Positions 1-63,616 of a DNA stretch of 64,000 bases are shown piece after piece. The stretch comes from Paraspadella gotoi (lineage: Eukaryota > Animalia > Chaetognatha). The notes beneath the pieces are model-generated. The model was given only the letters and a program-made list of their open reading frames with translations. It had not been told where the DNA came from and ran no database searches. The position numbers were made by a program, and so were the translations under genes. The DNA lies in the NCBI GenBank assembly GCA_051294375.1, contig CM119271.1:11799896-11863895 (forward strand). Direction: 5' to 3'. Numbering within the stretch: the stretch's first letter is position 1; each line of letters starts with the position of its first letter.

Positions 1-847
1 TGGCAACCTCGAGCTGCCAGGCGAGTTCGCCTGGGTACCAGGTGAGGGACTTGGGCGGCGGGACTTTCTCTCCATTTACTTCCACCTCCAACATTTCTTG
101 GAAAAACTTTCCCTTTATGATTTTGAGGAGCTCTTGGGCCTCGCCTTTGTAGCCCGTGATTCTGGGGGAGAGGGGGGGAGAGAGAGAGAGAGAATTAAAT
201 GGACATTGAGATAAAGAAGGGTGATGATGTTTTTCATTTAATTGTAAAATGTTTAATTGTTTATGGGATCGCCTTTGTAGCCCGTGATTCTGGGGGAGAG
301 GGGGGGAGAGAGAGAGAATTAAATGGACATTGAGATAAAGTAGGGTGATGATGTTTTTCATTTAATTTCAAAATGTTTATGCTCATCCTAATCAGCATTT
401 ATTTCAATTGAGCTTTTCTGAGAAAAACTTTTGACAGCATCAATGGCAGTTAACTTGTTTAAAACTAAAAAAAAACTAAGGGATCCCAACCTGAAGGTCA
501 CCGGCAGAGGCTTCCTCAACGTCTCCAAGAAATCCTGGAACTCGTCTTCAGCGACGAGATTTTGCAATTTGTAGAAAGCCTCGTATCTTTCGCTCTTTCG
601 CGGCGTGGTCTCGTACCCTTCCTTCGCTTCCGTCTCTGCGGCTACCTTGGTCATTCAAAGATGTTAAGTATTAATATTTAATTATCTAATATAATTAATA
701 ATCATATATCACCTCTTCCTCCTCTTCCTTGGGCGAGACTCCGAGGATGGCCTGCGCTTTACTGATGGCCGTCTCTCGAATCTTCATCTTCTTCACCGCT
801 TTTCGCGTCCGACCTTCGCCGAACGAGCGCTTCTTGTTTCTACCCAT
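1..847 (-). CDS. NSUN2: tRNA m5C methyltransferase NSUN2/Trm4, 5' part (runs off the window)
   Basis: ATG at 847 (MGRNKKRS...). Exons ~847-712, ~646-491 (YKLQNLVAEDEFQDFLETLRKPLPVTFR) and 161-1 (ITGYKGEAQELL...LTWYPGELAWQL) match the NSUN2 N-terminus. Confidence 0.88.
141..380. repeat. ~128-bp tandem duplication spanning an NSUN2 splice acceptor and 21 exon nt
   Basis: tcgcctttgtagcccgtgattctggggg...catttaatt occurs at 141 and again at 269. Confidence 0.85.
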
Positions 848-1202
848 GTTTTGTTTGTTTCTTTTTTTTTTTTGGTTTTGTTTGGCCCTTCAAAAAAGAA
901 ACGTTTAATCGAGGTATAAAACTAAGAAAAATTGACACGAAGAAATAATAGGTTAAGTCGTAGGACGAACAAGGCACTTGGTGTGAGAGAACAATGGAAT
1001 TCTGAAGAAAAGAAAAAAAAAATTGTGAGATTGTGAATTGGAACGATGTGACTAGTTAGGCTTTTTCTTTTTCTTTTTCATCGATGGTATTTCTTTGATA
1101 TTCGCATTGAGAGTAAAGACTAAAGAAATACAATCAATGAATCAAGATTGACAACAACAACAACAACAAAAAACTGTCAATTCTTATTTTTCTTCGCAAA
1201 TA

Positions 1203-1237
<35 letters not shown>

Positions 1238-1244
<7 letters not shown>

Positions 1245-2977
1245 CTCTTCTCCCTCTTCCACACAATAACCCTCCCCGCCGCGTCGCACGAGGCCAATAA
1301 ACTCTCGTCGTAATTAAAAGCGACATCTATCGCCGGCGCCGCGTGTCCCAAAAGACGATTGACGCGCGGACGAGGCGACTCGCGTTCCACGTCGAAAAAG
1401 TTGACGCTGCCGTCCAATCCGCCGGAAATGACGCAAGCGCCCTCGCTGAACGACATGAGCGGGCAAAAATTTGCGCGGACGGGCAGAGCGGGGCCGTCGA
1501 GGCGAGCTGCGTCCGGTGCCGGATCGGCGAGCGGGATACAGCGCCGCAGCTGCAGAGCGCCGGGCGTGTTGGAGAGTACGCGGAAGAGGAGGAGAGCGTT
1601 GGGTCCGGCGTTGGCGAGAAGCGTGGGATCTCGAGCCTCGCGACTCAACCAAGTCTTCGTGCGGAGACTCGTGATGGCGCGGCGACGCAGGGGGGAATCG
1701 GCGGCTGCTGCTGCTGCTGCTTCGTTCTCCGTCTTCGGCGAAATGTAAACCGTCCTCTTCGTCTTCGTCGCGATTCTTCCTTTGTGGACGTCGAACCCGA
1801 CGGCGACGATGGCGCCGCTTTCCGTCCCCGCCCACAAGATGGCGCCGGGATTGACGGCGTCGTCAAACGCCAAAGCCGTGACGGCGCTAGTGACGCCGCC
1901 TTTGGCGTTGCCTCGTTTCTCGCCGAGACTGACTCTTCTAAACGCCATGGCGGCGGCGGCGGCGACGCCTGGCGCCGGTTTGGCTACGCCGACGGCGCCG
2001 GTCGACGCCGCAGTGGGAGAGACGTTGATGGAGACGATTCTCTCTCCAGGGCCACAGGGTTTCCCGGTGGAGACGTTGAAGACGTTGACGAAGCCTTTGC
2101 GATTTCCGGCGACGACGAAATTGTTGTTGAGAGGTTGAAAGGCGCAAGACTCGATCGGCGACGATTGAACATCCGGCAAAACTCGGAGACATTTCAAAGT
2201 CTTCGCGTCCCAAATCCGGAGAGACGCGTCGTCTCCGCCGGAAATTAGTTGATCGCCGGAATCGGACCATTCCAAGCAATTGACGGACCCTTGGTGTGCC
2301 TTGAGGGTCGCGACGACGACGGGTGGTTGGACGCTGATGTTGCAGATGGAGATGAAGCCGTCTCGTGAGCAGCAAGCGAGTCGTTCTTTATCGTCGGGAG
2401 CGAAGGCGACGCGAAGGACGGCGTCGGCGTGATGTTCGAAGACGTGATGCATCCCCGCGAAGGCGTAGTTCTCTCCCAGAGTCTTTCCGCCCGCCATCGC
2501 GCGAGAGGCTTCGGCGAGAGGAGTCGGGATTAAAGAGGAAGAACTGAGTCGTTTAGAGTCGGAGGCTTTCGCCGATCCGCCGCCGCTGCCAGCATCGAGG
2601 GCATCCTCCTTAAAACCGCCCGTCGTCTCGTCAGGCGGCCAGAGAGTGCTGCGGCTGATGCTGTGGCTGGCGAGGCTGGCGGTGCGGCTGCGCGCGCTGT
2701 TGAGGCCGATGTCTGACGGTACTCCGGTCGAAGAAGTGAGACCGAGAGGATTTCCGTAGCGCTGAGCCAAAAGCTGCGCGCGTAGGCGAATGTATTGTTT
2801 ACGGAACTGAGTCTTGGATCCATCTTTCGGCGAACCGAGGGAATCTCGTCCAGCGGCGCTCTCTCGAAGGAGTTGACTTCTACGTCGGATGTATAAAGTT
2901 CGGAACTGTGGATTGTTCGGCGCGCGGTAGGCGTTGTATTTGGCATCGAGGGCCAACGTTTGTTGCCACGACGCCAT
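1238..2977 (-). CDS. WDR13: WD repeat protein 13, intronless, 579 aa
   Basis: Motifs MASWQQTLALDAKYNAYRAPNNPQFRTLYIRRRSQLLRE, ENYAFAGMHHVF and FNYDESLLASCD...VIVWKRE are characteristic of WDR13. Confidence 0.95.
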
Positions 2978-3495: not shown

Positions 3496-4900
3496 CTACT
3501 CCTTATGCCTCACGTTCTCCCCCAGCGCCTCTAGATGCGCCTCTCGACCCCAGAGTTTGGAGAACATGAGCGTCTCAATCTCCAACGCTTGAGCAAAGTC
3601 GTGTTCGGCCGAGATGCTCGAGATCATCTTCACCGTCCTCAACACGTTCGTCTCCTTCTTCGCTGCGAGCCTCTCCACGAAATCGACGGCCGCTTGAGTC
3701 GGATCGCTTCCGGACGCGATCACTTCGTCGGTAAGACCCATCGCTTCCGCTTCCTTCGCCCCGATTAACTCCGCGGAGAGGAGAAGGCGAAGAGCGAGGC
3801 GTCGACCCACGAGATGAACGAGACGGGTCGCGCCGCCGAATCCCGTGGAGACGCCTAGGCGAGAATTGACGAAACCGATGCGGGCGTCGGGATGCATGAG
3901 GCGGAAGTCGCAGGCGGTGGCGACTTCGGCGCCGCCGCCGAGGGCGTTGCCGCGTAGGAGGGCGACGGAGATGAGGGGGAGGCGGTAGAACTGGAAATGA
4001 ATGTAATGATTATTGGTTAATGATTAAATAAATAAGTATTGACTAAATCAAATGTTACGTTTACTCCTTGAAGATATTAAATCCGACAAAAGTACCCCAC
4101 TAAGTACACACCAAATCCAACAACCTGAGATAGAACGGCGTTCATGTAGTTTGACATGCGGAGACCGTCTCCGGGATTGGCGAGGCCTTTGACGAGATTC
4201 AAATCCGCGCCGCTGCAGAAGGAGTCGCCGTCGCCCTTGACGACGACGCCGACGCCCGAACGCCAAGATGAGAGTTCGTTGGTGACTCGACCAAGATCCA
4301 TCATCATGGAACCGGAGAGAGCATTTCTGAGAAAAGGATGGAAGATTAACGCATTTACCAATCCTTGCTCGCCCCAAATTATTGAATGAAGGAATCATTT
4401 TTACAATGTACCAATTTCATATGTAAAAGTGTCTATGTAATAAATAGAGAAAAAGAGTGCAAAAATTAATTTTTAAATTTCGACTAGTAATTTTTTAGTT
4501 TGAAATGAGATGAGTGAAAGAGAAAATATGAACCCTTGGCATTCTCTAAGTGTATTAAGTAATAAGTTATAATCGTTAATGGTTAGATTAATGATTCGCA
4601 TCAAGTTGTAAACCCAACTTCAGTTCGCGACTGCATTTCCTACTTTTTATTCGGATTGCTGATGGTAACCATAGCGACGCGCGACGCTCCGTCGATCTTC
4701 AAATCGACGCTTCCTTCTCCCATGAGTTTATTTTTCGTTAACGTCGCCCTCAACTCCCTCTGACCCTCGTAGACGTTCTCCGTCTCGGGGTTGACCGTCG
4801 CCGTCGTCGCCGCAGCCGTCGACGACCTCGAGCGGATCGTCGACGCGAAGAGGCGACCCGGTCTCCGAAGAACGAAGGCGGAGCGACGGAGCAAAGTCAT
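3496..4900 (-). CDS. ECHDC1: Ethylmalonyl-CoA decarboxylase (crotonase family), 3 exons
   Basis: Exons ~4900-4645, ~4330-4125 (NALSGSMM, FCSGADL) and ~3990-3496 (ALGGGAEVATACDFR, GFGGATRLVHLVG, LWGREAHLEAL). Confidence 0.85.
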
Positions 4901-5943: not shown

Positions 5944-7317
5944 TCAAGACGAAGAGGGCAGCCTGGAAGGGCCCGAGCGCCGCATGAGACGCTTCCCGAC
6001 GGCGTGGACTTCGAAACCGATCGACATCAAATGAGAATGATCCAAGATGGCGCGACCATCGAAGACGAAGGCGGGTTTCTGGGAAAGAAAGGAAAGGGTG
6101 TTTGGAAGAAAAGAAGGGGAAGGGGTGGCAGGGAAGAGAAGGGCAGGGAAAAGATAAAAAAAAAGGAAAAAAATAAGGGCATGTTAGGCGGCGAATCCTG
6201 CGTACGAAAATGACATGAGAATAAAAGAAATAAAGAGAAGAATAGGAAACCTTCATTCCTTCGTAGATCCTCTTATAGTCGAGAGTCTTAAACTCTTCCC
6301 ACTCTGTAGCGACGACGACGGCGTGAGCTCCGTCGCAGGCTTCGTAGGCGGAGCGAGAGATGGAGACGAGTCTCGAGTAGCGCGTCGCGTCCGGAGAACT
6401 CAGCTCTCGCTCAACCTGCTCGTCGAGCACCTGTCGACAGGAGGGGGGGGGGAAACAATGGATCGATCCGGCCGATTGAACCGATCAGCGGGGAGGGAAG
6501 CCTCTTTTGTTTATTTACCTTGGGATCGTAAATGCACAATCGGGCACCTTCGTCCATGAGATATTTGGCCACGTAAATGGCCGGGGATTCGCGAGTGTCG
6601 CCGGTGTTGGCCTGAAAAGGAAAACCATCACCTTGACATCCCATCTCCCTTCCCCGCCCGATCCTGCCCACTTCGAAATCTGGACCCCCTGTCGGGAAGA
6701 AACTTTCGTGAGGATTCATCGTCGGACTTTTATTCTTTTGAATATTAATTCATTGACAAATAAAACATTTATATTCTATTTTATTCTATTCTATTTCTAT
6801 TCATTTATTATTCATTGATTGATATTTTTTATTCAATGTCTTTCCTTTTCAGCTATCATGAGTTATTAATGATTATAGTAGAGGTGTTGGGTTACTGATA
6901 GGTTATGTGGTTCTTGATCATTGTGTTTCTCTTCTGATCTATTACAGTGAAGATTCCAGGGTGCACTGTCAATGCACGGCCGCCCGTGATCAATCTGGTT
7001 GGAGCGAGACATTCTGCCACGCCTTGACTTTTAGTGACACTCCTTTGGTCACCCCACACTCATCATCACCCGTCAGGGGGTACGCAGGATTCGCACCCTA
7101 ACACACCCCCCCGAACCTTGAAGGCGAAACCCAAAAGGGCGATGTTCTTGTCGGTGACTGTGTTGAAGAGCGACTCGACGATGAGATCGACGAACCTCCG
7201 TCGCTGCCAACCGTTGATCTCCACCACCTCATTAAGCAATGATTAAAGCAATTCATAGTAGGATTTACGAGTTCTCTTTTATTTTTTCTCTGTTTTTATG
7301 ATTCCTTTGTATTTCGC

Positions 7318-7366
<49 letters not shown>

Positions 7367-10300
7367 CCTGATTCCAATAAGCCGCTACTTCGGGCAAGTT
7401 AAGGCACTCTGAGAGATAAACCAAATTGAAGACGTCCTTCTGAAAGCAGGAGCCTCCGAATCCGATGGAGGCCTTGAGGAATTTGGATCCGATGCGAGAG
7501 TCGAGGCCGACGGCGTGGGCGACCTCGTCGATGTCGGCGCCGGTGGATTCGCAAAGAGCCGACATCGCGTTGATGGAGGAGATTCTGGGACGAGGGTCAG
7601 TCAATCACGCGATTGGTAAGCGATGATTTTATAAATAACTTCATAAGTTCATGCGAGTGTCGATTTCAATGTCAATAGTATTCGCCGGAAAGTAAAAAAA
7701 AATATAAATAATAAATAAATAAGTAAGTATAAATAAGTATAATTAAAACAGTTCATTGACATTTTTACCACTTTATAAATAATAGAGAAGCCAGGTGCTT
7801 TGGGACTGCGAGAGTGTCTCATTGAAAGCTGGTATATTATTATATTAAATAAAATAATACAATTGAAACATTCTTTGAAATATTTTCCACTTTATTGATA
7901 GGGAAGCCAGGTACTCTGGGAGTGAATAAACGAGACTGTGAGAGAATCTTGATTGAAAGCTTGCAGGGACCTGCTATGTCATTATCTTGTATGAGTGATG
8001 GAGGCCTTAAACCACCAAAGCCTGTCCAAAGTCAGGGGCAAGATAGCTTATTTATTAAATGAATGGATAATTTTTATATTGGTTGTACCAATTTCATATT
8101 AAAAATTGGACGGAGGCCTTAACCCACCATAGACAGTCCAATGTCAGGGGCAAATATAAAAATATTTAATTATTTATTGGAAGGAAAACTTTGAAATTGA
8201 TTATCTCAATTTGCTTACCTCTGCGCGAGAAAGGCATTGGCTGCGAGTTTGGAAAGTTCCGACGACCAAGTGTTCATGGTGACGATCTTTTCTCTCGGGA
8301 CCCAATGATCGTAGATCCAACAGAGACTCTCCACCGCCGCTTTGCCTTCTTCCGTCTGCTCTCCGCCGATCAAGACTCGATCCGGGAACATGAGGTCCTT
8401 GATGGCCGAACCCTCGGCCAAGAATTCGGGGTTGGACAAAACCTGGAACAAATGAATCTCCCAAAAGTCGGGTCCGTTTCATTTATAATTCTAACTATAA
8501 ATGACCTAAATTGGCATATATAATATATATAATTATATATATGTATCCCATCTCCTATCTCTGACTCAGTTTAGTTTTGCTAGTTTAGCAAAAACTAACA
8601 AAAAATAAAGACAATGAGAGACCAACACATCAAACGACAGTATGGCAAAATAGCACTTATCAAACCAACACCTGAGAGGAAATAAAGTAATCACGAGGCT
8701 GAAGAGACAGAAATAATTGTTTTGAATTAGTCCCTTCGTTTTGGTGACAAACCTGAAAGCGAACCCCAGGTCTCGTGTTGGCGGCGAGGATGGTTTGAAT
8801 GGATTCGGCCGCCTTCACCGGGACAGTCGACTTCTCCACGACGATCTTGGAATCTGCGGAGACGTCGGCAATCTTCCGCGCGCACGACTCGATGTACTTG
8901 AGGTCGGCGGGCGCGATCCTTTTCTTTTCCGTACATCTTGGTCGGCCGTGTTGACGGTAGATAAAGATCAAATCCCCGGTCTTGGATGAATACCAATAGG
9001 TTCCTTTTGAATTTAGTAGTTAAACCGTATTCAAATTAAAGGAAATGTTAGGCAACAGCCGGGTGTGTGCCTGTGATTGCGCCATTGGATGGGCTACTCA
9101 TCTGTTTTGGCTTTGGGTCGGTTCTTCCGACCCTCAGTGACGCCTCCCAGTCACTGGCGCGGCTTACCCTAGGACGGGCTCTCGCTTTGCCAACGCCAGA
9201 GGAATCGGTTAGGACTGTGGATGGAAACACTTACCGCCTGGGAAAATGCGTGTGTTTCCCCCTCTCAGCCAATGGATTTGGCTGACAAGATGCGTGGACG
9301 TTGAGGCGCGTGTGAATATACCGCCACAGATCCTCCGCGGCCAAGACATCACTCTAGGTTCCTCAAAGCCTGCAGAGGTTGTCTGACAAGACTAGTTACC
9401 ATTAGTGGAGAGAGGAGATATGAGCGCGAGTTGTGGATGGCGCATAGGCGTTTGTCGTAGGCGTACCCAGGGGCATAGGCGTTTGTGCGTTGTTTAGTTC
9501 CGTACCTCGAAGTCGGGCAGGGCATAAGGCTGTTTGTCGCTAGCATACCCTGAGAGCGTTTCGTGTTCGATAGTTAGGCTCACCACTTATGGGCAACAGC
9601 CGGGTTGGCCTGTGATGCCCATTGGTCGATTGGGGCATCTCACTGTTTGGGCTTGTGCGCGCGGCTTCTCGACCCTCAGTGACGCCTCCCAGTTCACTGC
9701 GCGGTTACCCCTTAGGACTGGTCTTCGCATTTTGAAACGCAGAGGGATAAGGTCTGTTAGGACTGTGGATGGAACACTACGCCTGTGATGGCTGTGTTTC
9801 CCCCTCTTGAGCCAATGGATTTGGCTGAACAGATGGTGGACGCTGAGGCGTGTGAAGTATACCTCCACAATGTTTTTCTTAAAATTACAATGTAATACAA
9901 TAAATGAATAAGACAACTTTTAACAGGCGGTTTAGCCCTAAGAAGAAAATGTTGACGTGAACTTTTTAATTCAATACAATACTTTATTATAATAAAGTAC
10001 GCATCATTAAAAAAATCGGCTTTATCCTTGTTAAAGTAAAGAGAAAAAAATTCCCTTGAGCTAATAATTTAATACAAATTATAATCAATTAAAGGGATTT
10101 AAAAAGGCCGTTAAACCTTAAGACAGGAGTCGATCTCCGCGGAAAAGAAAAGATTCTTTCCTCTTCGACTTTGAACGACGTCTTGAAGATCGGGTTCGCA
10201 AAATCGGGAGACGATCCGAGTTCCACGCGTCGATCCTCTCCCTGTTCATGTCCACAAACGCGGACCGTCACGTCGGGACATTTGAGGGCGATGACGCTGC

Positions 10301-10419
10301 ACGTGGGACCGCCCACGTAGCCCGCGCCGATGCAGCAAATGTTGCGGATGGGGCGGCGCGGCCAAGCGGCGTCGCCCGAGTCAAGAGAAGGCGCCGGGGG
10401 TGTCGGGTTTCGTCGCCAT
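5944..10419 (-). CDS. UGDH: UDP-glucose 6-dehydrogenase, multi-exon, with apparent frameshifts in the 5' exons
   Basis: Motifs [70 protein letters not shown] and KPAFVFDGR; stop TGA at 5946-5944. Confidence 0.95.
9049..9869 (-). mobile_element. Miniature non-autonomous LTR retroelement (TRIM) in a UGDH intron
   Basis: Diverged direct repeats 9588-9869 and 9049-9328 (TGTGG...GC(C)CATA on minus), PBS-like TGGTGAGCC at 9585-9577, purine-rich GCGGAGGATC before the 3' LTR, and 4-bp TSD ATGT (9045-9048 / 9870-9873). The internal part shares motifs with the 23.7-kb element. Confidence 0.8.
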
Positions 10420-10884: not shown

Positions 10885-13800
10885 TCACTCGTAGGCCAGT
10901 CTGAAGGTGCGCTCCTGCTCCTTCCGCTGCGCGTCGTACTGACGAGAGACTTCCTCCACTTTTCGGTGCAGCAGCGCAGACTTTTGATCGACCCAACTCA
11001 AGGAGTCGATGTGAGCGTTGAGGATTTTGGCGATCTGGTTGGTCGTGTCGCCACCTTCGCCTCGCGACCCGTCGCCAGATGCCATCGAGTTGTTTGCGTT
11101 GAGATGATCGATGATCTCTCGCAGATCCGAGACCATCCTCTTCAATTGCGCGTCGATGTTTTCTGAACGAGAAAATGAAATTTGGACGCGTTAAAAAAAG
11201 AGCATTGTCTCTGGGCCCATCTAGTAAAGGTCTTACCGGCTACAGTGTACGTGTGCTCGCGCTCCAAGTCCGAATGCTGCGCGTACCCGACGGGTGAAGT
11301 GGGCGTGTCCGTCGTCGTCTTTTCCAGAGATGCGATTATGTCTTCCAGTTCTCTCTGGGATGGGAAAAGGAGAAATTAGCGACGCTAAATGAAATTAATA
11401 TCTAATTTGCATATTGCTTCAATCGAAAGGCACAAAATTATTATAACTCATGTCCAGTTGTCCACTCATTGTAAATCGCTTCACCCTTGAATTTCCGTCA
11501 TTTTTTCCCCCCATTTTTTTATCATTCCTCATTTTTTTCCCATCATTTCCTTTCTCCTACAAGAAGGTTTTTTTTTCATTTCTTACAAACAGCATTTTGG
11601 TTCAGATTCTATTGTTTTCTATAGAGATTTCCTATTTTGTCTGCACCCACCTATATTTCACTTACATCGCTTTAGACAAAATATCACATTTATATATTTC
11701 CCACATATTTTTCCAGAGGGCACTATAAACAAAAGAATTATTTTTTAGAATAAAAGAACACTTCTTTAAAGGTCCTGTTCCTTTTTGTGAAACAAACAAC
11801 ATTCAAATTAAGTTTTTTTTTATATTTTAAGCTTTATTTATTAGAGGGCTCCCCAAACAAAAGAGAATTCAGTAAAACAAGATAGCACTTTTGATTAAAT
11901 TTTTAAAATTATTTACCAGATATCTTTTTTTTTAAGAAACAAAGAAACATGTATAATAAATTTGATCTGCACCTGCTAGATCTTCCTTTGCACCTGCTTT
12001 TATAAAAAATATCAATTTCTATTTAAATTTATATCATTCCAAATAATTTAATATTTTTTTAATAAACATAATTTTTTAAACAAAAAATTTATATAATTAA
12101 ATATTATATCCTATATTTTTTATCTTAATTTTTAAAATTTTTTGAAAAACTGATATAATTTTTAAAAAATGATGCAAGTTAAAAAAAATATACAAGTTGA
12201 ATAAATTATGCAAGCTAAAAAAATGATGCAAGATAAAAAATGGTACAAGCTAAAAAAATGATACAAGTTGAAAAAATAAAAAAATTAAAAAATGATACAA
12301 ATTTAAAAAAATATTATTAATGCCGCAATAACAGTTTAGTTTAAGCCCTTGAAAGCGATTAACATGTATTGGCGCAGCCACTGGTTTCTTAAGTAATCCG
12401 AGTGGTAAAAATGAATGAAAAAGTTTGGTACACTTTTAATTGTAATAAATACAAAGCTCTAAACCCTTAATAAAATTGATTGATGCCCCACCTGCTTTTT
12501 AGAAATCTCATTCTTACATGACCAATTTTTTGCCCTCTTTCTTCTTACCTGTTGAGACAGGATAAAGTCCAACTCATGATCCAATCTCTGTTCGTCCGCC
12601 TTCACTTTCTCAACTTCGTTGTGCAACTCACAAATTTTCTCTCCGTTGTCGATGAGAAGTCTGTCCCAAGCGTTCACCTGGAGACAAGACAGGATTTGGG
12701 AAAGAAAACATCGAAACGCGCATAGTTATTACTTGAACATGATGAGCGGGGTAAAACATAGGTAAAACATAGGTAAAACATAGAAAGAGCAAAGCGAACG
12801 GAATTCCGCTTCAAGCTGCCTCGAAACAAGATGCCTCGAAACTGTAACTAACTCTACATCAGAATCTCTCTCTCTCTCTCTCTCTCTCACCTGCGTCGCC
12901 TGATTGACGAAGATCGACTCCTGCTCCTCCAAATCCAGCGTCCAATTATTAATTTGCTCCTCGAGTTGACGAAAGTTCATGTTGGTGACGGCGGAGACTG
13001 CAGCAGCGTCAACGGAAGCCGACGTCGCCGCAGCGGCGCCCGTGATCGGCGTCACAGCGGCAACGGCATTGGTCGCCGCCGCCGACGGAGTGGGCGTGAC
13101 CGACGCCGAGGATATTGACAACGCCGGCGCCGAAGCGGCCGTCTTTGCGGCGCCAAAAACCGGCGTCCCGAGATTCGGCGCGGAAGCGACGGAAGTCGGC
13201 GCCAAGGACGGAGCCGAAGAAACGGAGGCGACGACCGATTGAGCGGAAGCGGAACCGAATGATGGGGCTGGAGTGACGGCGGTCGGGGCCAATCCAGCAG
13301 AGACGGAGGACGCCACGCTGGCGCCGGATGGGACGGCGACCATCGACGTTAACGACGCCGACGACGCCGGAGCCGAAATGGAAGCGCCGAAAGAAATTCC
13401 CGTCGCCGGAGCGGACGTCGCCGGTTTGGGTAGAGAAAACCCAGTAGGTGCAGGAGCAGCGGCAGAACCGAATGATAACGGAGCCGCGGGTTTAGGCGCT
13501 GCAGCCACCCCTCCCAAAGTGGGCGCGGTCGTGTTAGAAGGTAGACCGAAGGAAAAACCTCCGGAAGTCGTGGTGGCGGCGGCGGCTGCTGCGGTTGCGG
13601 CTGCTGCGGTGGAAGCGGCGCCGGTACCAAAACTGAAATTGAATCCACCCGACGCCGCTGATGCCGCCGTCGTCGTCGCCGGCGCCGGCGACGCGAAAAG
13701 GCTCGTCGATCCCGCATTCGCCGGAGTTGCCGCCGTCCCAAACCCAGGTACTGTCCCTGCCGTCCCAAACCCTGACGGCGCCGACGCCGTTCCAAACGTT

Positions 13801-19097: not shown

Positions 19098-19152
<55 letters not shown>

Positions 19153-45957: not shown

Positions 45958-46039
45958 AATTTTATAATATGAAGCCTTGTGTAATCTGTATATAAACTTA
46001 AAGCAATAAATTCGGCGACTATGAGGACTCGCGGGATAT

Positions 46040-46190: not shown

Positions 46191-46195
46191 GCCCT

Positions 46196-51878: not shown

Positions 51879-53489
51879 TCAAACAGTGTATCGATTCTTG
51901 GTGGTGGACCCCGCTTTGGATATCGTGTCGGTGTGCGCCTGAAACCCGATCTGAACCGAGCGAGGAATTTCGAGTCGAGATTTGAGCGTCCGACCGATTT
52001 TGACGATGCTCTCCGCGTTGCGAAAGTCACCCGTCCACACGGCCAGTTTGTCTCCTGGAAAAAAAGAGAAATGGTGATTAATTGTAGTAATGTGGTCTAA
52101 TATTGTTTAACTTTTTGACAGTAGAGTACAGTAATTATTCTAGGTTAAAAAATAATAACATCTAAATTAAAAAAAGGAATAAAAATAGATCAACGTTGAA
52201 TCAACGACGTTGATTCAAAATACGACAATATGTAAATGAGATTAAGAGATTCGGGACTCACCCTTGAGTCTGATGTTGACGACGGCGCCGCAGATGTCGT
52301 CCGACTGCTCGTCGAAGGCCTCGCCGATGAGGCAGAGAAGAGTCTCCAGCCAAAAGTGGTCAAGATCCGAGTTGCGCTGCTGTTTGTTCAGATTCAACAA
52401 CCATCGACCGCCTTTCTTGTTGCGAGCGTCTTCCCACATGGGCTGGACGCCGTCTAGAGAACAAAAGAGAGGAGGGGAGGAGAGAGTGAAAGGTAGGGGG
52501 AGAAAGAGAGAGAGAAGAAATAAAGCGGGAGGAAATGACGTGAGAGAGTGAACCCAAAAGGCAAATTATCAATCACGATTCAGACGCTAAGCAAAGTCAA
52601 GTAAAGAAGCCCGACGCTTCGGCTCGTTCCACCTTTAAAGAGCGAATAGTCGCAACCAGCGCCGAGTTTGCTTGCGGGGAGGATATGGTTGTAGAGGGCC
52701 CAAAAGTCTTCGACCGTGTCGAAGGATGTGATGTAACGAAGATTCGCCGCCCAATCTTTGTTTTTATCGTTTTTGAAGAACCACATGGCCCATTTATGCT
52801 GTTGCGGAAGAAGGAGGGCGAGTCTCATTATATTAATTTTTGTTCATATTAACCTTTTGTTTACGATTTACGTTGAAACTCCACGCCACAGAATTTTTAA
52901 TTCCTTTATGGAATATTAATTCTATATCGGTCCACCTCGCCACGATATGCCCTTTTGATCTATCGACGACCGCGAACAAAAGGGCATTTCGTGGCGAGGT
53001 GGACCGATATGAGAATTTAAATTTGTTGGCAGTGCTAATACCATCTCGCCACTGCTCTCCTTTAAGTTCGACTCAATGGCTGAACAGGATAAGTCGCTTC
53101 GTCCCGTCAGTCCATCCCGGGTTCAATGCCTGGGCATCCCGGTGACCTCACTAAAACGTCACGGGACCTCGAGCCATTAACCGGAGGCGGTCACTTAGGG
53201 TCCTTAGCCCCAATGATAGTTGGTTGTACCACGTTACCCCGGAGTTTCACCGTTGCCACAATTAATGACTGACTTAATGTAACATAATCTTCTGTCTTAC
53301 CTGCAACGGGTGTTTGAGCATCATGTGTTCGGGGGAGATGGTGACGTTCTCGGCATCGGCGGGGGAATCGGCGCCGGAATCGAGGGGGCGTTCCTCGGCG
53401 TCGCCGTCTTTGCCATCCTCGGACACTGAGGCCAAAGTGGGCGCCTGTTGCACTTCCTTTGGAGGATCGATCAACCTTCTCTCCGACAT
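51879..53489 (-). CDS. EIF4E: Class I translation initiation factor eIF4E, 4 exons
   Basis: Motifs KHPLQ|HKWAMWFFKNDKNKDW, FDTVEDFWALY, PMWED, GGRWL, GAVVNIR and H.DT..K.GSTTKNRYTV*. Confidence 0.95.
52925..53010. repeat. Long near-perfect hairpin in eIF4E intron 1
   Basis: atatcggtccacctcgccacgatatgcccttttg...caaaagggcatttcgtggcgaggtggaccgatat. Confidence 0.9.
53024..53260 (+). mobile_element. Diverged solo LTR of the tRNA-like TRIM family
   Basis: Retains ctcaatggctgaacagg (A box), cccgggttcaatgcctggg (B box/T arm), ggaggcggtcact.agggtcc and terminal ccgttgccaca. Confidence 0.72.
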
Positions 53490-53896: not shown

Positions 53897-56047
53897 CTAA
53901 TCTTCCTCTTCATCCGGAATCCATATTTGACTCATTTCCATCGTTTCTCTCTCAACGTCATCCGCGTCGTCGTCTTCTTCCTCCTTCCCCTCCTCCTCCT
54001 CCTCCTCCTCCTCCTCCACGAGTTCCGCCAGCAAATCGACGAGGCTTTCCTCTCCGACCAACGTCTTTTCCGCTTCCTCTGATCCTCGTCGACGCCTCGA
54101 GGATTGAGAGAGGACTTCGAGGATGGAGGCTTCGTCGACGATCGGTTCCGGGTCGTCTTCGGCGTCATCTTCGGGCGACGCTGTCGACTCGTGGCTCAGC
54201 ACCTGCGACGCCATCACGGACCCGTCGAGCGAGGTGCGTCGTTGGGTGGACGAAGCCCGCTCCACTTCGAATTTGGCGTAGAGTTTCTCCATGAAGAATT
54301 TTTCCGATTTTGAGGAGAATCTTTTCGGATCAGAAACTGAAGAAGGAAAACTAATAATAATAATATATTTTATTTATTTAGAAATTATTAAACTGCTAAT
54401 GAAACCACAAACAAACAATCGTTTGCCATAGAAAAGCAACAATATTAAACCTTAAAGGGTAATCGAATGAAAATGAAATCTAAACTTAACTATACTTCAT
54501 CAATACTTCGACAATATGCAAATGAGATTGTTGAACCATAATTCTCAAATTCCCTAATTCCGAACCTTCGACACGAGACGCGTCGTTGGAAATCTGCGAA
54601 GATTCGAGATTGTTTCTGCGTCGTTGCTTTTCGTCTTCCCAAATCGCCGCCAATCCCGGATTCTCTCCGTCTAAAAAGTAAAACGTTTATTTATTTACCT
54701 TTACGCAAGAAAATAATGTTTGTTTTTATCCAAAGATCGAAAAAAGTACCCGCGTTCTGTTCCAATTCCTTTCTGTTAAGAATATCGATCGCCGATGCGT
54801 CGGCTTCGATCTGACAATGTCCGTGACGCTGGAAAAAAAAGATTTAGTTAAAGTTTGAAATTAAGTTTGAGCCTCAATTCTCAGTCCACTAAAAAAACCT
54901 TAGCAACGATTGAATCTTGCGGAAGCATAAACTCCTTGGCGTTGTCAGAATCCCACCAACCCCGAGGACGACACCGTTGAGAATTGTATTGGGACAAACT
55001 TGCCGCGAATTGTTTGTAGGGAGAATCTTCCGCCTCCAAAAATGGCCTTTTGAAGTCGACGCGTGATTTAATAATTACGTAATTATATTGATTATATCGT
55101 GAAATATTACCTAAACTTCGCCGAAGAGAGGTGAAGAAAATTCATTCCGTACAAATTGTAATCTATGAAGAATTGGAGAATAAAGGGAACGTGAGCCTCG
55201 TGAGGTTGAAACGAGTGATTCAAAATGGCGCCGGCCTGTGATTAAGTAGTGATGAGCGGGGTTTATGTTTATGTTTATGACGAGAGTTTATGTCCAACAG
55301 TAGAACCTTCAACGATTGAGAGATGATATGAGTTTTTGTTCTATTATTTATTTAAGATTGACTTACCACATCTTACCAAAAGTAAGTCGGCCATTTTCTT
55401 GATGTCGTTGGGATTGTAGACGTAGATTTTAAAGAAATCCTCGGCCTCAGGGTGATAACCGTAGAATCTCTTTCCGCTGACGACAACGATTCTGAAGACG
55501 TGTTGATCCCCAGAAGAGTGGCCTGTTGTTTTATGAAATTAGTACAACCAATATAAAAATTATCCATTCATTTAATAACTAAACTAAACATCACGCCACG
55601 AACTCCCCCCACCCAGCACCTACCTCTCCCCATCGAAATGTTAAGCGCCTTATCAACAGACGCCGCCATCTGCAACAAGAACGCCGCCAACGCCGATTCG
55701 TCCATCCCTTCGCCGACGCCTCCGAGAAACCGGCGCTTCAAATCCTTTTCGAAGGGAACGTACAAATAAGGAAAGACGCCGTGGACGTGAAGCAGAGCCT
55801 TTTGCCCGACCGGAGTGGCGCCGTACACGCGAATGACGGGCAGCTGCTTGACGGGAGAGTTGTGGCGGAAGGAAGAGTGGGAAGCGTCGACGCCGGGCAG
55901 CGGCGCGTTGAGGTAATAGTCAGCGTTGACGATTCGGACGGAGAGGAAGTGGTCGTCGTCGTCGTCATGGTCGTCTTGAGATTCGGGGATCAAGGATCGA
56001 TAATGCGAAGGCGGCGACGGAGGAGTTTCCCAACTTCCGCCGCTCAT
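53897..56047 (-). CDS. REV3L: DNA polymerase zeta catalytic subunit, N-terminal region only, ~7 exons
   Basis: Motifs SVRIVNADYY, PVIRVYGATPVGQKALLHVHGVFPYLYVP, HEAHVPFILQFFIDYNLYGMNF and NPGLAAIWEDEKQRRR; ends MEMSQIWIPDEEED* with no PolB domain. Confidence 0.85.
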
Positions 56048-56172
56048 CGCCAATCGACAATAAAATCTAGAGAAATAAATCAATAGAAATAAATCTAAAG
56101 GAACAATAAATCTATCAGTATCACAATCTATTTTCGTGAACGAAGCGAGAAATTTCATTTTCCCCAACAAAA

Positions 56173-58771
56173 TCACAATGACGATGATCCTTCAGCGCCG
56201 GCTATGAGTCCGCCAACGGCGGCCAAAAAATCTCCGGAGAATTTAGCGTCGGAAAATCTTTCGGCGACGGACTCCCGCGCCCTCTCGCGGAGCGCCATTC
56301 GTTCGTCGAACGTCAAGTCCAACGCTCGACGGATGGCGCTGGCGTAGCCTTCGGCGTCGCGGGCCAAGAAGCCCGTGGGTCGTCCCTCGGCGTCGTCGAC
56401 GACGATGTCCAATTTGGGTCCTCCAGAGTCGTGGGCGACGACGAGGGCGCCGGCGGCCATCATCTCCACGACGCCGATCCCGAAATGCTCGTCCAGCATC
56501 GTGTGGAGGCCGACGGTGGCGGAGGAGAGGCGATCCTTGAGTTCCGCGAAGGAGATGTTCAGGCAAAAGTCAACGCGATCGGAAAGTTGAAAATTATCGC
56601 AGAGAGACTAAAGAGGATATGAAATTATGTTATTATAAATTATCCATTCAATCTATAAATACGTAGTTTACTATTTTGGCCCAAATTAAGACAGGCATTG
56701 ATTATTATCATTAAACGATAATAACCTAACAAGCTTTAAATCAAGATACACACACACAGTTTAGATTATCAAGCCGAGAGTACCTGGCTTCCCTATCAAA
56801 GAAGTCGTATAATTGCTTCTATAATCACGAATTATTTAATTATTATTTCATAAAAAATGAATTTTTTGAAGTCGTTACTTGCAAATTCTCCACCCTTTTG
56901 ACGTCCTCGGCGTGACGACATCCTCCGACGAGGACGAGTCGAACCCGTCGACGACGCTCTTCGGGGAGATCGCGACAGAGGGCGGCGAAGGCGGCGATTT
57001 GGAGGGCGTGGTCCTTTTCGGGGCGAAACTGACCGATGGAGAGAATCGTCTCCACGCGGTTGTGAGATCCGTATCGTCTGAAAGGAGATGGGGAAATTAG
57101 ATCGGTAAGTTACCGGAAAGAACCTCAATCTCATTTGCATATTGTAGCAGTTCAAATTATCTCTAATACATCTGTATCTGTTGATTCGGTATTCGTAGAA
57201 GCCTTCAAAATTCGGGAAACAAGTCGTGCGGGCGAGTAAAATGTAACAAATTAGATTCGATTAAAGGTCATTCACCAGCGACGCTAATTATTTCTCTTCT
57301 TTCATTTCAAAATCAATATCCCTTCACGGAAGCGTTTAAATCAAAGCTATCCCATCCGCCTCGCAAAATTATACCATTTTTTATCTTTCAACAAAGTGCT
57401 GCCATCTGCCAACGATATTCTGCAATCTCCAACCCCCACCGCCCTCTCGCCTGTTCTCCGTCGCTCCCTCTCTCTCCAGCGGCAACTTGTGAAATTCCGT
57501 CGTGTTGCAGGGAGGATGAACGACGATCGCTCGACGTCGCCACAGACTCTCGATATGACGCCGCGTCCACGAAGAATTGACGAGGACGCGATCGCCGCGC
57601 CGCCCAACGACGCCGTAGAGAAGCGCGAATAGACGATAGTAGAGGAGTTTGCCGAAGGTCAAGGCCGAATTGTCGGCGACGGCGCCGGGATTGTTGAAGG
57701 CGGCTCGACGGTCGCGGACGCGGGCCAACATGTCCGTCGAGATGGTCGGGTAGTGGACGTAGGATGCCACTGGAAAAAAAGGAGCAGGAAGGTAAGGAAA
57801 AAATGACCCATTCCTTTCCGGGACCAATCGACTCACCCTTGCATCGGGCGAGAGTGGCGAAGAGGGGAAGGGTGAAGGCGTAGCCCATGGAATCGACGAA
57901 GACGTCCGGTCGGAAATTGGTCAAGGCCTCCCAACCGAGAAAGACGGAACCGAGGCTTTGGCCGATGAGGGTGAAGCGAGGGTAAGTCGAGGCTTCGACC
58001 CAGAGACGATTTTTGAGAAAGATGAAATCGGGAGGACGAGGAAGCGAGATCTGGGATAATAAAAGAAAAAATTAATTAATTTATAAAATACTTACGACGA
58101 TATATACAAATCAAGGGGCAAATTGACATAAAATTAGGGTAAGATGACTTATTTATTGAATGAATTGGTAATTTTTATCTGGGTTGTACCAATTTTATAC
58201 AAGTCAGCTCCTTGCATTTTGATGCTAGTGCGGAGTACAATTTAGTATTCCGGTTTTCACCAATATAACAATAAAGGAGTTGGTCCTTTTACACAATTGA
58301 AGCATACTTTGATCATTTTATAATACTTTTTAATTGTTGAGCGGTTAGTGCACCGAGTCGTTTTTATTTTTCATTTTCTTTTTGTTAATGTTAATTATTT
58401 CAAACTCCATTTTTGTTCACCTGAAAAGAAGTAAGCGCCTTTGACAAAATCGCCGGACCCGAAGAATCACCATCGCCCGTGAAGATGACGCATTTGACTC
58501 TTGGGTGCGCCTCTTGAATGGCTTTCACCGCCACCCACAACACGCGTTCCCCGCCGCCGCCCGCGTTGCAGTAGGGATGGAAAAAGGCCACAGTGACGGC
58601 GTCGTCAGGCGGCGTCGACGCCGGACGAGTTTCCCGTCGACGGCGCCGGCGCGACAACCACCAACGCAAGAGATGACTGAGACCGGGAGTCAAAGAGAAA
58701 AGGAGCAAAGCGACGGATGTGATGATCACGCGAACGAGATTCCATCGCGTGAAGGGTAAAGACTCAGACAT
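56173..58771 (-). CDS. ALG11: GDP-Man:Man3GlcNAc2-PP-Dol alpha-1,2-mannosyltransferase
   Basis: Motifs [50 protein letters not shown] and [14 protein letters not shown]. Confidence 0.95.
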
Positions 58772-59007
58772 GGTGAGACGGCGACGCGGGTCGTTAATCA
58801 CATGTTTTTTCGTTTATTTAGGACAAAAGTACACAATGTCCATCTTTTTTTAATGTTTTAATTCGCATAAAAAAGTTTCTGGTTTAATGAATCAATAAAT
58901 TAAGACGGACGAGGAAAAGAAAACGATTCAAAGATTAAAATGTGAAATCTACAGGTGAACGTGAGATTAATGTTAAACAGTATTATTGTAAAATAAACTT
59001 CGATTCA

Positions 59008-61149
59008 CTACCTCAACAAAACAATGTGCTTTCGCCCATCATCGTCCTTGACTTTGAACCCGTTGAAGAGAAAGTAAGACCTTTTATTTAAAGCGTAAAT
59101 TAGATCCGTGATCATAAACATCTGCGCAACGTTGTAGGCGAGCGTGATGGCGAAGTAAAAGTTAGAATTGGCGCTGCCAGCGTAGATCCACAGATGCCAC
59201 AGGATGGGCCCCATGACGAGCGTGGTCAAAAAGACGCAGACTGTGGGAAGCGTGGTTCGCATGAAAGGATAACAAAAGTACCACATTGGTAGCATTGAAG
59301 TCCAGAGGCCGGCGTCAGCTAGCGTAGGGTAAGGCTTGAAGATGGCCATCATCGCCAGGAGAGCGTGGAACATGGCCACCGGATCGTCGCGGAACATGAC
59401 GGCGAAGGGCAAGACGTAAAAGAAGGCGTTGGTTTGGAAGACCCAAAGATAAAAGACGCGGAAATGATCGAAGATCTCGATGAAGAAATACCAAAAGATG
59501 CCAACGTTGGGGGTCATATCCGGGTAGGTCAAGTGAAAGCCGTAAGTGGAATGAAGGAAAGTCCAAGAGCCCGTCAAGTGTCTGGAGAGGAAGAGCATTC
59601 CCCAAAAGATCGCCAAGAATGCTCCGGCGGTGTGGAGATAGGATAGAACGACGCGGCGTCTCTTGTCGCCGTCGAAGACGATGGGTCGATTGTGCTTTTG
59701 TTCGACGGAGATGAAGAAGAGAGAGACGGGCACGAGCAACACGCAGGCGTAGAGGCATTGATAGGTGGATAGAGCGAGCCAAAAGGCCGCCCAGGGTCGT
59801 CGCGACTGAAGGGTGAATAATAATGTCATTGCGATGCTGAGATTCGTGAAGACGCAAGTGGAACGAGCCACGCAAGAAGCGACGGTGTAAGGATGAAGCA
59901 GATAAAAAGCCAAGACGTAGTTTTTCACGTTCATCGCGTCTTGAGGATTGAGAGCGAGAGAGACCGATTCCGGGTCGATGCGTTTCGAGGCCTTTTCCTG
60001 ACGAACGAGCATGTAGCGGGCGAACTGCTTGGCGCTCTTCTCTAGGACGACTGCGACGAGAACGTCGACGACGATGAAGACGACGTTGACGTAAGGACCG
60101 AGGAAGCGGAACAGTAGTTTGTAGATGAAGAGCATCACCGGCGGCTCGTGAAAAACGTCGCTGGGGGATAAATATTAGTTTAAATGTTGGGTTATAGTTA
60201 TTGTAATAGCAGTAAGTTGTTGACAGTTTTTGTAAGAGATTCTTAGAATAATACTAAATGAGATTGAGATTTCATCAATCTCATTTGCATATAGTAGTAA
60301 ATCATTATAAGTCCAATTTATTTTTGTACTGTATTATTATTAGGTATATTTTTGGACTACTTTTCTATATTGTTTAGTAGTTTATTTGATGCATAGATAA
60401 TTTTGTGATAATTAGATAGAATAATTATGTCATTAATGATTGAGAGTTTATTTCTATCCTGGCTGACCTTTTCATAACTCATAAATACTTATACTTCAAA
60501 GGTGAAATCAATGGTAGGCTTGGATCAAGGGACGTACTCTCATGTAAGAGTCCCATATCTCTGAAGTCCTTGCTTAATATATTAAGTGTTGAATAGTTGT
60601 ATTAAATAAAAAATAATAATAAAGATAAATTATAATTCTATTTGTATTTAGTAATAGTAATAAATCTGAGGAAAACTAGAAAGGCAGCGCGAGCACTATC
60701 ACTGAAGATGAAAGTAACAAATAATATATAATTCATAACCTGAGTCCCACTCCTATATTTTCATACAACTTCAACTAACATCAATTATAGAAAACACGTC
60801 ACAAAAATGAAAGTTATTGACAAGACTTGGGTAATTTTTCGTCCCTTTTTCATTTCGAACGTACGACTGAAAATACGAGTTACCAAGAACATTAAACATT
60901 AAACGCAATAAACGCTGCAATATGCAAATCAGATTTTGGTACAGACCTTTCGTAAGGCGAGATTCCACCGGTCTCCAGCGCCACCGCCTCCACGACGCGG
61001 CGCCACGAGTTGGCCGCCGTAGAGAGTTCGACTCGATCGCGAAGCCAACGCGTCGCCGTCGACGAGAGGAAGAGGGCGACGCGTAGGGCCACGCCCCCGC
61101 AGAGACACCAGGCGGGCGCCGAAGATGAAGCCAGACCGGATCTCCCCAT
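59008..61149 (-). CDS. PIGU: GPI transamidase subunit PIG-U, 2 exons
   Basis: Motifs RVELSTAANSWRRVVE, PY.SDVFHEPP, PNVGIFWYFFIEIFDHF and LWHLWIYAGSANSNFYF. Confidence 0.95.
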
Positions 61150-61500
61150 GTCAGGCGAGAAGATAGTTCATTTAAAAAATAGACGACTGATTATTTATGC
61201 GGGCGAATAGAAGAAAGTAAAGGATTAACGTCAACGAACAACGAAAAATACGCGCGCGTCAATTTGAATCAAATCATGGAACAAAAATGGAAAGAAAAAT
61301 TATTGGGGAGGGGAGAAAAATGGGGACGGCTGACGTGAGTTGAAAAAACGTCAATTTTCTGAATAATTTTAACAATATTTAAATTTATGAAATTAATCTT
61401 TCATACTTCCAAAGGAAAGTACGACAATGCCAAGTCAACTTTTGTACATTATACTCCATGTCAGCCGTCCCCCCTCCCCTTTTTTTACAAAGATCCAAGA

Positions 61501-62209
61501 TCACATTGCATTGAGATATTCCAAGAGATGCGCTCGATTCCTTTCTCTCTGTTTGTCCTTTTTACTTTTCTTCACTTTCATCTTGATCTTCTTCCCCGAG
61601 AGTGCGCTGAACTTGTCCTTCATGAACTTGGAGAGTTGGACCGGCTTGTCTCCTCCAGACGATTTTCTCTTCTTCTCCTTCTTTCTCTTCTTCTTCTTCT
61701 TTTTCCCTTTGTCTTCTTCCTCGTCGGAATTCTCGGAATCTTCTTCTTCCTTCGACTTTTTTCTCGTCTTCTTCTTCTTCTTCGACTTTTTCCTCTTTCT
61801 CTTCTTCTCTTCCTCCGAGGAGGAAGAGGAGGAGGCGGTTGAGGAGGAGGAGGAGTCCGAATCGGAGGAGTCGGCGGAGGATCTAAATGATCGACCCCGT
61901 CGGTCGGTCGGTCGCGGAATTGGTCGTCATGGAGGATCGTGACGGCCGCCGATGAAGGAGGATCGCGTCCCGTGTCGAGGGAAAAGAAAAAGAGAAAACG
62001 CGAGGATGAAGCCGATCGACGAAAGAACTTACTCTCTTCCCTCCCGATCGGCTTAACTCGACCCCCGATTCTTACCCACTAGAATGTCTCCTCTTCTTCT
62101 TAAGCGACGTCCCCTCCTCGCCCTTCGAAGCCGACGTCGACAATGAACGTTTTTCCCGCCATAAATCGTCGTCGTCGTCGTCGTCGCGACGATGTCGTTT
62201 TTCGCTCAT
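61501..62209 (-). CDS. Lys/Ser/Glu-rich low-complexity protein, probably nuclear
   Basis: Exon ~62209-62076 (MSEKRHRR...), then ~61883-61501 ending PVQLSKFMKDKFSALSGKKIKMKVKKSKKDKQRERNRAHLLEYLNAM*. Confidence 0.7.
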
Positions 62210-62383
62210 TGTGAATTCAAAGCCTTCGGAATCAATGAATGAATGAATGAATTCATAAAACAACGTAAAAAATGGAATGAACAAATAAACTTTGTTTTTC
62301 AAAGAAGACAAGAACAAATATACATGCCTAAAATAAAATTGAACTATCGAGAATACAAAACAACGAATCAATTTCAAAACAAA

Positions 62384-63616
62384 TCAAATCAACGTTTCTC
62401 TTTTATGAAACTTTTTTGAGCAAATGTTGTTCCCGTGTTCCTGCCATTCTTTCCTCGTGACCTTCAACTTGTCGAACTCTTCCCGACACTCCTCCACGAG
62501 CCTCTTCCCTCCGAGCCAAGCCGACGCGATGGGATTGTCGGGCAAAGCGACGGCGACGTCGTATTCGTCGGCCACGAGACTGCGGAGGTCGGCCTCCACG
62601 CGGTCGCGCATCCCCGGGAAGAGGCAGTTCCCGCCCGTCAGCACGACGTTCTTCAGCAGATGCGGCTGCATCTCTGCTGGCGTCAACTCCACCGCCAGAC
62701 GAATAGCTTCCGGCACGCCCATTTCCTGGATGCCGACGTCGGAAGGATGAAAGAGAATCTCAGGGACGGCGATGCGTTCGTTGTTCATCCGGATGATCTG
62801 TTCGCCCGCTTGGGATTTGCCCGTCGTCTCCTCGGGCGCCCGAACGTAGCCTCGACGGACTTCGATGTAATCGGGCAAGACGTAGTCTCTGATGACCGAG
62901 TTGGATTTGCCTCTCGCGGCGGTGAGTCTCATGTCAGCGGCGAAATCGGCGGAGACGTAACAGACGTCCTCCTTGACTTGATTCATGACGTAAGTCTCGT
63001 CCATGACCATCACTTGTCGATACGAGATGATCTCCTTCAAATGGTTCGTCAACAACTTTCCTCCAACGTTGATTCGCTTGACGCCGGCGAGAACGACCTC
63101 TCCTTCCCTCACTGGCGCCAAATGGGTGAAGGAGAAGCCAGAGTCGACGACGAGAGAACAGAGCGGCGCCGGGCGCCCCGCCGACACGGCAGCGCCAACG
63201 TATTCCACGTGACTCAGCGCCGCGGGCGTGGAGACGTAGACGGCGGCGAATTCGTACTCTTCGAAGAAAACCTCGTTGACTGCCTCTTTGATGCTGGCGA
63301 AGTTAAAGTAAGGCTCCGCGAAGACGAGGTCCGTCTCTGGACAGTCGACGCCGAAACCGTCTTTGCCGAAGACGTGATTCCAGACTTGAGATTCCACGTC
63401 CCAATTGATGAGGTATCCCTTTTGGAAGGGGCGTTGGTAGAAAAGGCCACTCATGTCTTTACAATCGTCGATCTGGTCTCCGACGAAGACGCGGCGCCGC
63501 TCGTTCTTTGCTTTGGTCACGCAGTTGGGGATGAGGCGTGGCGCTGGGAGGGAGGCGTAGCCGGCTTTTGCCAGATAGGCGCCATTGTCCAGCACGAACG
63601 CCTTGTTGCTGCTCAT
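62384..63616 (-). CDS. ACTR6: Actin-related protein 6, intronless CDS
   Basis: Motifs VLDNGAY, PFQKGYLINWD, VVDSGFSFTH, GGKLLTNHLKEIISYRQ and PEILFHPSDVGIQEMG. Confidence 0.95.
   Translation of the reverse strand: MSSNKAFVLDNGAYLAKAGYASLPAPRLIPNCVTKAKNERRRVFVGDQIDDCKDMSGLFYQRPFQKGYLINWDVESQVWNHVFGKDGFGVDCPETDLVFAEPYFNFASIKEAVNEVFFEEYEFAAVYVSTPAALSHVEYVGAAVSAGRPAPLCSLVVDSGFSFTHLAPVREGEVVLAGVKRINVGGKLLTNHLKEIISYRQVMVMDETYVMNQVKEDVCYVSADFAADMRLTAARGKSNSVIRDYVLPDYIEVRRGYVRAPEETTGKSQAGEQIIRMNNERIAVPEILFHPSDVGIQEMGVPEAIRLAVELTPAEMQPHLLKNVVLTGGNCLFPGMRDRVEADLRSLVADEYDVAVALPDNPIASAWLGGKRLVEECREEFDKLKVTRKEWQEHGNNICSKKFHKRETLI

Follow-up and report, generated by a model that had tools for sequence, protein, structure and literature searches.

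The window analysed here, a stretch of 64,000 nucleotides from the chaetognath Paraspadella gotoi (assembly GCA_051294375.1, contig CM119271.1), carries about 25 housekeeping genes that follow one another in a single direction on the minus strand, and this one-directional array is real and unusually long. It is best understood, with a probability of roughly 60%, as a chain of operons within a directional housekeeping array, in which the individual messages would be resolved by spliced-leader (SL) trans-splicing.

The strand layout was established by a Pfam scan of stop-to-stop open reading frames (ORFs), 246 of them on the minus strand (at least 60 amino acids, aa) and 145 on the plus strand (at least 72 aa). 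Minus-strand matches at or near the cut-off mark 20 genes, 19 in a first pass and a LYR-family protein on a second look, and none of the 145 plus-strand ORFs reaches the cut-off, with a single match below it. A 3-periodic coding model trained on the minus-strand exons kept 75 segments on the minus strand and eight on the plus strand, seven of which overlie minus-strand exons while the eighth lies in the 3' untranslated region (UTR) of eIF4E. Both approaches bear out the claim of an initial annotation, made from the letters alone, that every identifiable gene is on the minus strand. Its count of about 25 genes stands as well, the 25 minus-strand gene models comprising the 20 with Pfam support, a partial NSUN2 and four orphans. 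Adjacent pairs are co-oriented in 23 of 23 cases, and both ends of the array are open at the window edges. The names ARP6, WDR13 and SDHAF2 come from named matches, and ERAL1 and NSUN2 from PDB matches; the remaining orthologue names combine the Pfam family with recall or with the labels of the initial annotation. The features are as follows in transcription order, X1 being the spliced run described further below.

62384..63616, minus strand: ARP6 (actin-related protein 6), single exon; Pfam Actin, named matches, X1 contig
61501..62209, minus strand: Lys/Ser-rich orphan, two exons, 171-aa model; model and X1 contig (61202-61883), no Pfam match
59008..61149, minus strand: PIG-U; Pfam, an intron skipped in X1, contig 3' end at 58936
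58879..58881, minus strand: unpaired CAG acceptor before ALG11, candidate trans-splice site; X1 contig start at 58878
56173..58771, minus strand: ALG11, five exons, one GC-AG intron; Pfam, three introns skipped in X1
53897..56047, minus strand: REV3-like, N-terminal part only; Pfam REV3_N and POL3_N, model
51879..53489, minus strand: eIF4E, four exons; Pfam, three introns skipped in X1
48541..51034, minus strand: ERAL1 (mitochondrial Era GTPase); PDB match, E 4e-39, X1 contig from 51465 into the coding sequence (CDS)
46196..48290, minus strand: HMG-box protein, presumably HMG20-like; Pfam HMG_box, model
44344..45325, minus strand: rhomboid protein, presumably RHBDD1-like, with a 10-N gap inside; Pfam
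42491..44044, minus strand: alpha/beta hydrolase; Pfam Hydrolase_4
34972..40715, minus strand: PH-domain oxysterol-binding protein (OSBP); Pfam PH and Oxysterol_BP
32824..33757, minus strand: uncertain orphan with a tentative exon structure; coding score and splice signals only, no Pfam match at cut-off
31929..32556, minus strand: LYR-family protein; Pfam PF13233, E 2e-4, just under cut-off, model
31387..31932, minus strand: SDHAF2 (Sdh5), single exon; Pfam, named matches
28871..31172, minus strand: ASNSD1-like asparagine synthase domain protein; Pfam, model
26567..28782, minus strand: CDCA7-like zf-4CXXC protein; Pfam, model
21964..25826, minus strand: POLR3F (Rpc34), first intron filled with repeats; Pfam, repeats
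20374..21668, minus strand: orphan of about 280 aa; coding score 101, no Pfam and no usable Atlas match
14258..19971, minus strand: BCS1L; Pfam BCS1_N, AAA and AAA_lid_BCS1
15469..16155, minus strand: predicted small multi-exon orphan, nested in a 3.8-kb BCS1L intron on the same strand; weak model score, one coding segment, no family match
10885..14100, minus strand: NUP62, frame broken near the start; Pfam Nsp1_C, frames
5944..10419, minus strand: UGDH, frame broken in exon 1; Pfam, frames
3496..4900, minus strand: enoyl-CoA hydratase family protein, presumably ECHDC1-like; Pfam, model
1238..2977, minus strand: WDR13, single exon; named matches
1..847, minus strand: NSUN2, partial, running off the window; PDB match, E 0.002

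Adjacent genes are separated by short intercistronic DNA, as in an SL operon. The 23 stop-to-start gaps have a median of 351 bp; seven are below 250 bp, 16 are at most 500 bp, and seven are wider (518, 740, 844, 870, 1043, 1214 and 1775 bp, three of them above 1 kb). Among the widest are those from the HMG-box to the rhomboid gene (870 bp), from the hydrolase to OSBP (1775 bp), from OSBP to the orphan that follows it (1214 bp), from CDCA7 to POLR3F (740 bp) and from UGDH to the ECHDC1-like gene (1043 bp). Since the gaps run from stop to start, UTRs make the true intergenic distance shorter. The gaps quoted in the initial annotation were reproduced at 88, 125, 157, 174, 214, 236, 250, 267 and 1775 bp, apart from a second gap of 214 bp that was not found; they were mostly the small ones, the full set being less tight, and a 4-nt overlap at 31929-31932 had been missed. 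Two of the widest gaps contain short exon-like stretches with splice signals, at 40993-41325 and 4940-5230; these may represent additional small genes or 5' exons, and the gaps in question would then be narrower.

How many units the array contains depends on where the gaps are cut. A 250-bp cut gives 16 units of at most four genes, a 500-bp cut gives eight of at most six, and a 900-bp cut gives units of 10, 1, 10 and 3 genes. The chance of a single strand is correspondingly 2^-19 for the Pfam genes alone and 2^-24 (6e-8) for 25 independent genes, rising to 0.008 for eight units and 0.125 for four; the figure of 2^-24 put forward earlier is therefore right for independent genes and too small for grouped ones.

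Direct RNA evidence comes from one spliced run, X1, aligned to positions 49300-64000, from which six contigs are listed; of the words sampled from 54-64 kb it contains a fraction of 0.69, and its label as RNA is a guess. Its contigs follow six consecutive genes, each contig differing by 0-2 letters, and leave out seven introns bounded by GT-AG or GC-AG, among them the GC-AG intron of ALG11 at 57078-57450. The pieces obtained from two further runs, X2 and X3, were all short and of low identity. Two spacers are crossed by X1 contigs, which are assemblies and not single molecules. The ARP6 contig (62166-63670), whose 5' end carries 17 unplaced letters, covers the 174-nt spacer in full and reaches 44 nt into the CDS that follows, and the ERAL1 contig starts at 51465 and runs unbroken through 430 nt of the eIF4E-ERAL1 spacer, a part of it, into the CDS, ending at the first ERAL1 donor.

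Two other contigs stop shortly before a candidate acceptor. That of the Lys/Ser-rich orphan ends at 61202, 15 nt before the sole YAG within 130 nt of the PIG-U ATG, and that of PIG-U ends at 58936, with the ALG11 contig beginning 57 nt later at 58878. The ALG11 contig starts directly after an unpaired CAG, the sole YAG in the 164 nt that follow the PIG-U contig end, and carries five non-genomic letters; the lengths of its pieces total the record length of 1023. No consensus-like cis donor eligible for this CAG was found among the GTs of the PIG-U/ALG11 spacer. The five letters equal in length the suffix common to all SL forms in Table 3 of the Spadella study (Marletaz et al., 2008; PMC2481426), a weak coincidence.

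Unplaced letters, be they five or 17, would fit a cis-spliced exon as well as a leader, and the unpaired acceptors might accordingly be served by cis-splicing from a distant shared upstream exon; alternatively, the array might have been joined by misassembly in an assembly that does hold a 10-N gap and frame-breaking indels. Either is very improbable, however, since the X1 contigs follow six consecutive genes almost letter for letter and cross two spacers, and a misjoin would not put all genes on the same strand.

The composition of the spacers points in the same direction as the contigs. On the sense strand, 20 of 22 spacers have an excess of T (P 1e-4), which transcribed DNA resembling a 3' UTR would be expected to show, and introns show no such skew (0.01). 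The skew falls with spacer width (rho -0.58), fading in the wide gaps and being absent in that of 870 bp. Donor-like GTRAG is under-represented in spacers (five observed, 13 expected). In 21 of the 22 spacers, the 130 nt before the ATG contain a YAG; with a matrix built from the 52 cis acceptors of the gene models the median acceptor strength is 4.6 bits, against 3.35 in shuffles, a marginal difference. The published SL suffix has one match in the window, with one mismatch, which is chance level (24 of 100 shuffles); Rfam and tRNA scans of the 64 kb gave no matches; and a scan of the widest gap for bacterial promoters, a model not applicable here, stayed at chance level.

It could also be argued that every gene is transcribed on its own from a compact promoter located in the 3' end of its upstream neighbour, with some of these monocistronic genes perhaps trans-spliced, and that their co-orientation reflects selection against colliding transcription or a history of gene relocation. 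A median gap of 351 bp and the weakness of the acceptor-strength tests would suit this explanation, and a genome-wide same-strand rate of 0.7 would give about one chance run of 25. Further, 10,197 of the 21,072 P. gotoi genes, nearly half, are trans-spliced and only 18% lie in operons, defined by gaps below 250 bp (Piovani et al., 2025; PMC12460157). Contigs that end 15 and 57 nt short of the next candidate acceptor, a spacer that is crossed entirely and a gene pair that overlaps by 4 nt are harder to reconcile with separate promoters, and a wholly monocistronic array is on balance a minority possibility.

Comparison with known systems, for which the available parts of the cited sources were used, places the array closest to chaetognath operons, which likewise consist of housekeeping genes on one strand with short gaps between them (Piovani et al., 2025; PMC12460157). 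The longest operon reported in P. gotoi has nine genes, and it consists of ribosomal, ubiquitin and proteasome genes, hence of another gene set than the present array. The published operons are thus limited to nine genes, in contrast to the run of 25 here, which the same 250-bp cut would divide into units of at most four. The one-strand layout itself has precedent in Chaetognatha. Table S5 for the 158-kb bacterial artificial chromosome (BAC) 35A21 of Spadella cephaloptera has 24 rows, 19 plus, four minus and one unoriented by a machine-read count (Marletaz et al., 2008; PMC2481426). The 14 named genes other than transposons, spread across about 120 kb, all have plus orientation, and the four minus rows stand under transposon labels. 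SL-bearing expressed sequence tags map to several of the genes; a single two-gene operon was validated in that study, whose authors also noted more clustered genes of the same orientation. Unlike in the present array, genes are sparser there, and the table, which omits predictions without a SwissProt match, has no gene name in common with it. A literature search at the level of titles and abstracts found no published measurement of one-strand run length in chaetognaths and no paper on long directional clusters in animals.

Beyond chaetognaths, the SL operons of nematodes, tunicates and flatworms agree with the model proposed here in joining unrelated genes over short intercistronic DNA with a leader at an unpaired acceptor, but in the sources available most have two genes, the largest being a seven-gene operon in Ciona and a nine-gene candidate operon in S. 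japonicum (PMC7986045; PMC12582326). The suggestion in the initial annotation that animal operons typically hold a few genes is consequently too low, considering nine in a chaetognath (PMC12460157), nine in S. japonicum (PMC12582326) and 14 one-strand genes on the BAC (PMC2481426). The units of trypanosomatids come nearer in length, being long runs of functionally unrelated co-directional genes with a mean of about 30, close to the 25 found here (bioRxiv 10.64898/2026.07.29.740908). Tens of unrelated co-directional genes are indeed present in the window. However, most trypanosomatid genes lack introns and those of a unit are transcribed from a common start site, whereas most genes here have introns, with 52 cis acceptors among the models, and a single start is hypothetical.

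On this analogy the whole run, perhaps extending beyond both window ends, might be one polymerase II unit with one promoter and a leader at every gene. Several observations lean this way: no gene lies on the opposite strand across 64 kb, a run of 25 is expected just 0.011 times per 22,000-gene genome under the published P. gotoi operon fraction, the Spadella BAC offers a comparable run, and the mean directon length is about 2 in animals as opposed to about 30 in trypanosomatids (bioRxiv 10.64898/2026.07.29.740908). A single unit would nevertheless have to bridge three gaps above 1 kb and four more above 500 bp, with a T skew that weakens in the wide gaps and disappears in that of 870 bp, and it would far exceed the nine genes reported under the 250-bp rule (PMC12460157); it is therefore rather unlikely. 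Of the two forms in which the idea was first proposed, a long operon or a chain of operons, the chain resolved by trans-splicing fits the X1 contigs, while the single giant unit is hypothetical, with seven of the 23 gaps above 500 bp.

Within the array, the LYR-family gene and SDHAF2 are the one pair with no spacer at all. The LYR stop (31931-31929) and the SDHAF2 start (31932-31930) account for the overlap of 4 nt. The LYR protein is probably SDHAF3; Pfam gives the LYR family only, and the automatic name in the Atlas is FMC1/C7orf55. The two genes likely lie on one bicistronic mRNA. In relatives, contigs with SDHAF2 have a median of 577 nt outside the CDS (57 near-full-length members among the matches listed, incomplete members having been dropped and members not being independent), and the same measure is 253 nt for ARP6 (nine members) and 258 nt for WDR13 (three members). 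The SDHAF2 contigs are hence about 320 nt longer beyond the CDS, and the LYR CDS measures 366 nt. This excess fits a conserved LYR-SDHAF2 bicistronic mRNA, although a longer UTR would look alike. In the portions of the literature available, a search on the pair found no description of an SDHAF2-SDHAF3 bicistron. A similar arrangement is that of sloth1 and sloth2 in Drosophila, where two small assembly factors of a respiratory complex share one transcript, but those are other genes for another complex, and the pair described here has the 4-nt stop/start overlap and a presumed shared mRNA (PMC9953451).

The close relatives of ARP6 and WDR13 are all JGI, Logan and ENA proteins, of 62-74% identity, with named animals next at about 60% and 42%, and in quick trees (32 and 55 selected rows) both proteins form with these relatives a fully supported, long-stemmed clade that lies inside no named group. 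The WDR13 of the homoscleromorph sponge Oscarella, 39% identical, falls elsewhere in its tree, and a sponge origin of this kind was rejected on these grounds. For SDHAF2, the best 18 of 38 matches are from sequence catalogues, two of them from merc, presumably a marine metatranscriptome catalogue. A metagenome scan with the ARP6 alignment, covering 37 of 64 parts, found six loci, none closely related, and no leader translation was seen at the N-termini of the relatives' proteins that were compared. The ratio of observed to expected CpG is 1.41 in exons and 1.40 in spacers, compared with 0.20 in a repeat resembling a short interspersed element (SINE) and 0.71-0.92 in four other repeat sets. Depletion in repeats but not in genes is the pattern expected of P. 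gotoi, where methylation targets transposons and spares gene bodies (Piovani et al., 2025; PMC12460157, section 9). As such methylation is also reported in ctenophores and some nematodes, the pattern is not diagnostic of Chaetognatha. The relatives and the CpG ratios together are in keeping with a probable chaetognath source, and other phyla lacking named proteins might fit as well.

Taken together, a chain of leader-resolved operons would work as follows. Several polycistronic transcripts would cover the array, and SL trans-splicing would divide each of them into mRNAs of single genes. Polymerase II would start at few promoters, which we infer to lie most likely in the widest spacers (870, 1775, 1214, 740 and 1043 bp), and would read through two to 10 genes from each. 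Cleavage and polyadenylation of the upstream mRNA would take place in the short U-rich spacer, and the downstream message would receive a capped leader, itself inferred, at a YAG a short way ahead of its ATG. Having no spacer between them, LYR and SDHAF2 would remain together on a mature bicistronic mRNA, whose translation would involve reinitiation or leaky scanning.

A number of points weigh against this explanation. The extra 5' letters of ALG11 (five, non-genomic) and ARP6 (17, unplaced) are known by their number, so that a shared leader is only putative, and those of ARP6 join at a position preceded by TG and not YAG, a misfit with a simple model of a leader at a YAG. The ERAL1 contig runs without a break through its candidate acceptor. 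X1 contigs are unstranded as well as composite, and overlapping UTRs would look alike; RNA covers 49.3-64 kb only, from one run possibly of the same source as the window. The acceptor statistics are marginal with the cis-trained matrix, 22 of 500 shuffles reaching the median and 34 of 500 the count of strong sites (6/24), and not significant with a fixed pyrimidine rule, where counts of 5/24 and 9/24 sites are reached by 139 and 110 of 1000 shuffles. With regard to the source, named chaetognath sequences are absent among the matches listed for ARP6, WDR13 and SDHAF2, and a sixth, AT-rich intronic stretch has a CpG ratio of 1.21.

Some further features of the window deserve mention. The REV3-like gene (53897-56047) encodes about 400 aa that end in an acidic tail, lacks a polymerase domain before eIF4E begins, and may be a split or truncated paralogue. 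The ASNSD1 start overlaps by one base with the stop of a 30-codon upstream ORF at 31173-31264; in the human gene an upstream ORF is conserved. The SINE-like repeat, of about 200 bp, occurs in both orientations at 7887-8097, 16295-16530, 35890-36110 and 49478-49672 and is very deep in X1 at one copy, and the two copies of a repeat at 23740-24430 are set apart by numerous small indels. In UGDH exon 1 (10140-10419) and NUP62 (13800-14100), single-base indels break the frame and are probably assembly errors. The 10-N gap at 44619-44628 in the rhomboid gene has a short duplicated stretch on its flanks, so that its two sides probably overlap.

Overall, the array is most likely known operon biology on a larger scale, leader splicing being familiar and the length of the array unusual. 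Strand runs in animals average about two genes, and the longest animal operons in the literature consulted have seven to nine; a run of at least 25, echoed by the chaetognath region described in 2008, suggests that operon calls based on distance undercount such units. A bolder view would have kinetoplastid-like arrays of at least 25 intron-containing housekeeping genes, with one or very few promoters, resolved entirely by trans-splicing and including a translationally coupled SDHAF3-SDHAF2 bicistron, as a genome-wide trait of chaetognaths hidden by the 250-bp operon rule; as a whole this is doubtful. The question is directly testable, given that Iso-Seq, ATAC-seq and leader-tagged RNA-seq have already been described for one chaetognath. 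In the LYR-SDHAF2 overlap, translation would couple two proteins that help to assemble the same respiratory complex. Finally, if the array did prove to have one promoter, an animal would have converged on trypanosome-style transcription with its introns kept.

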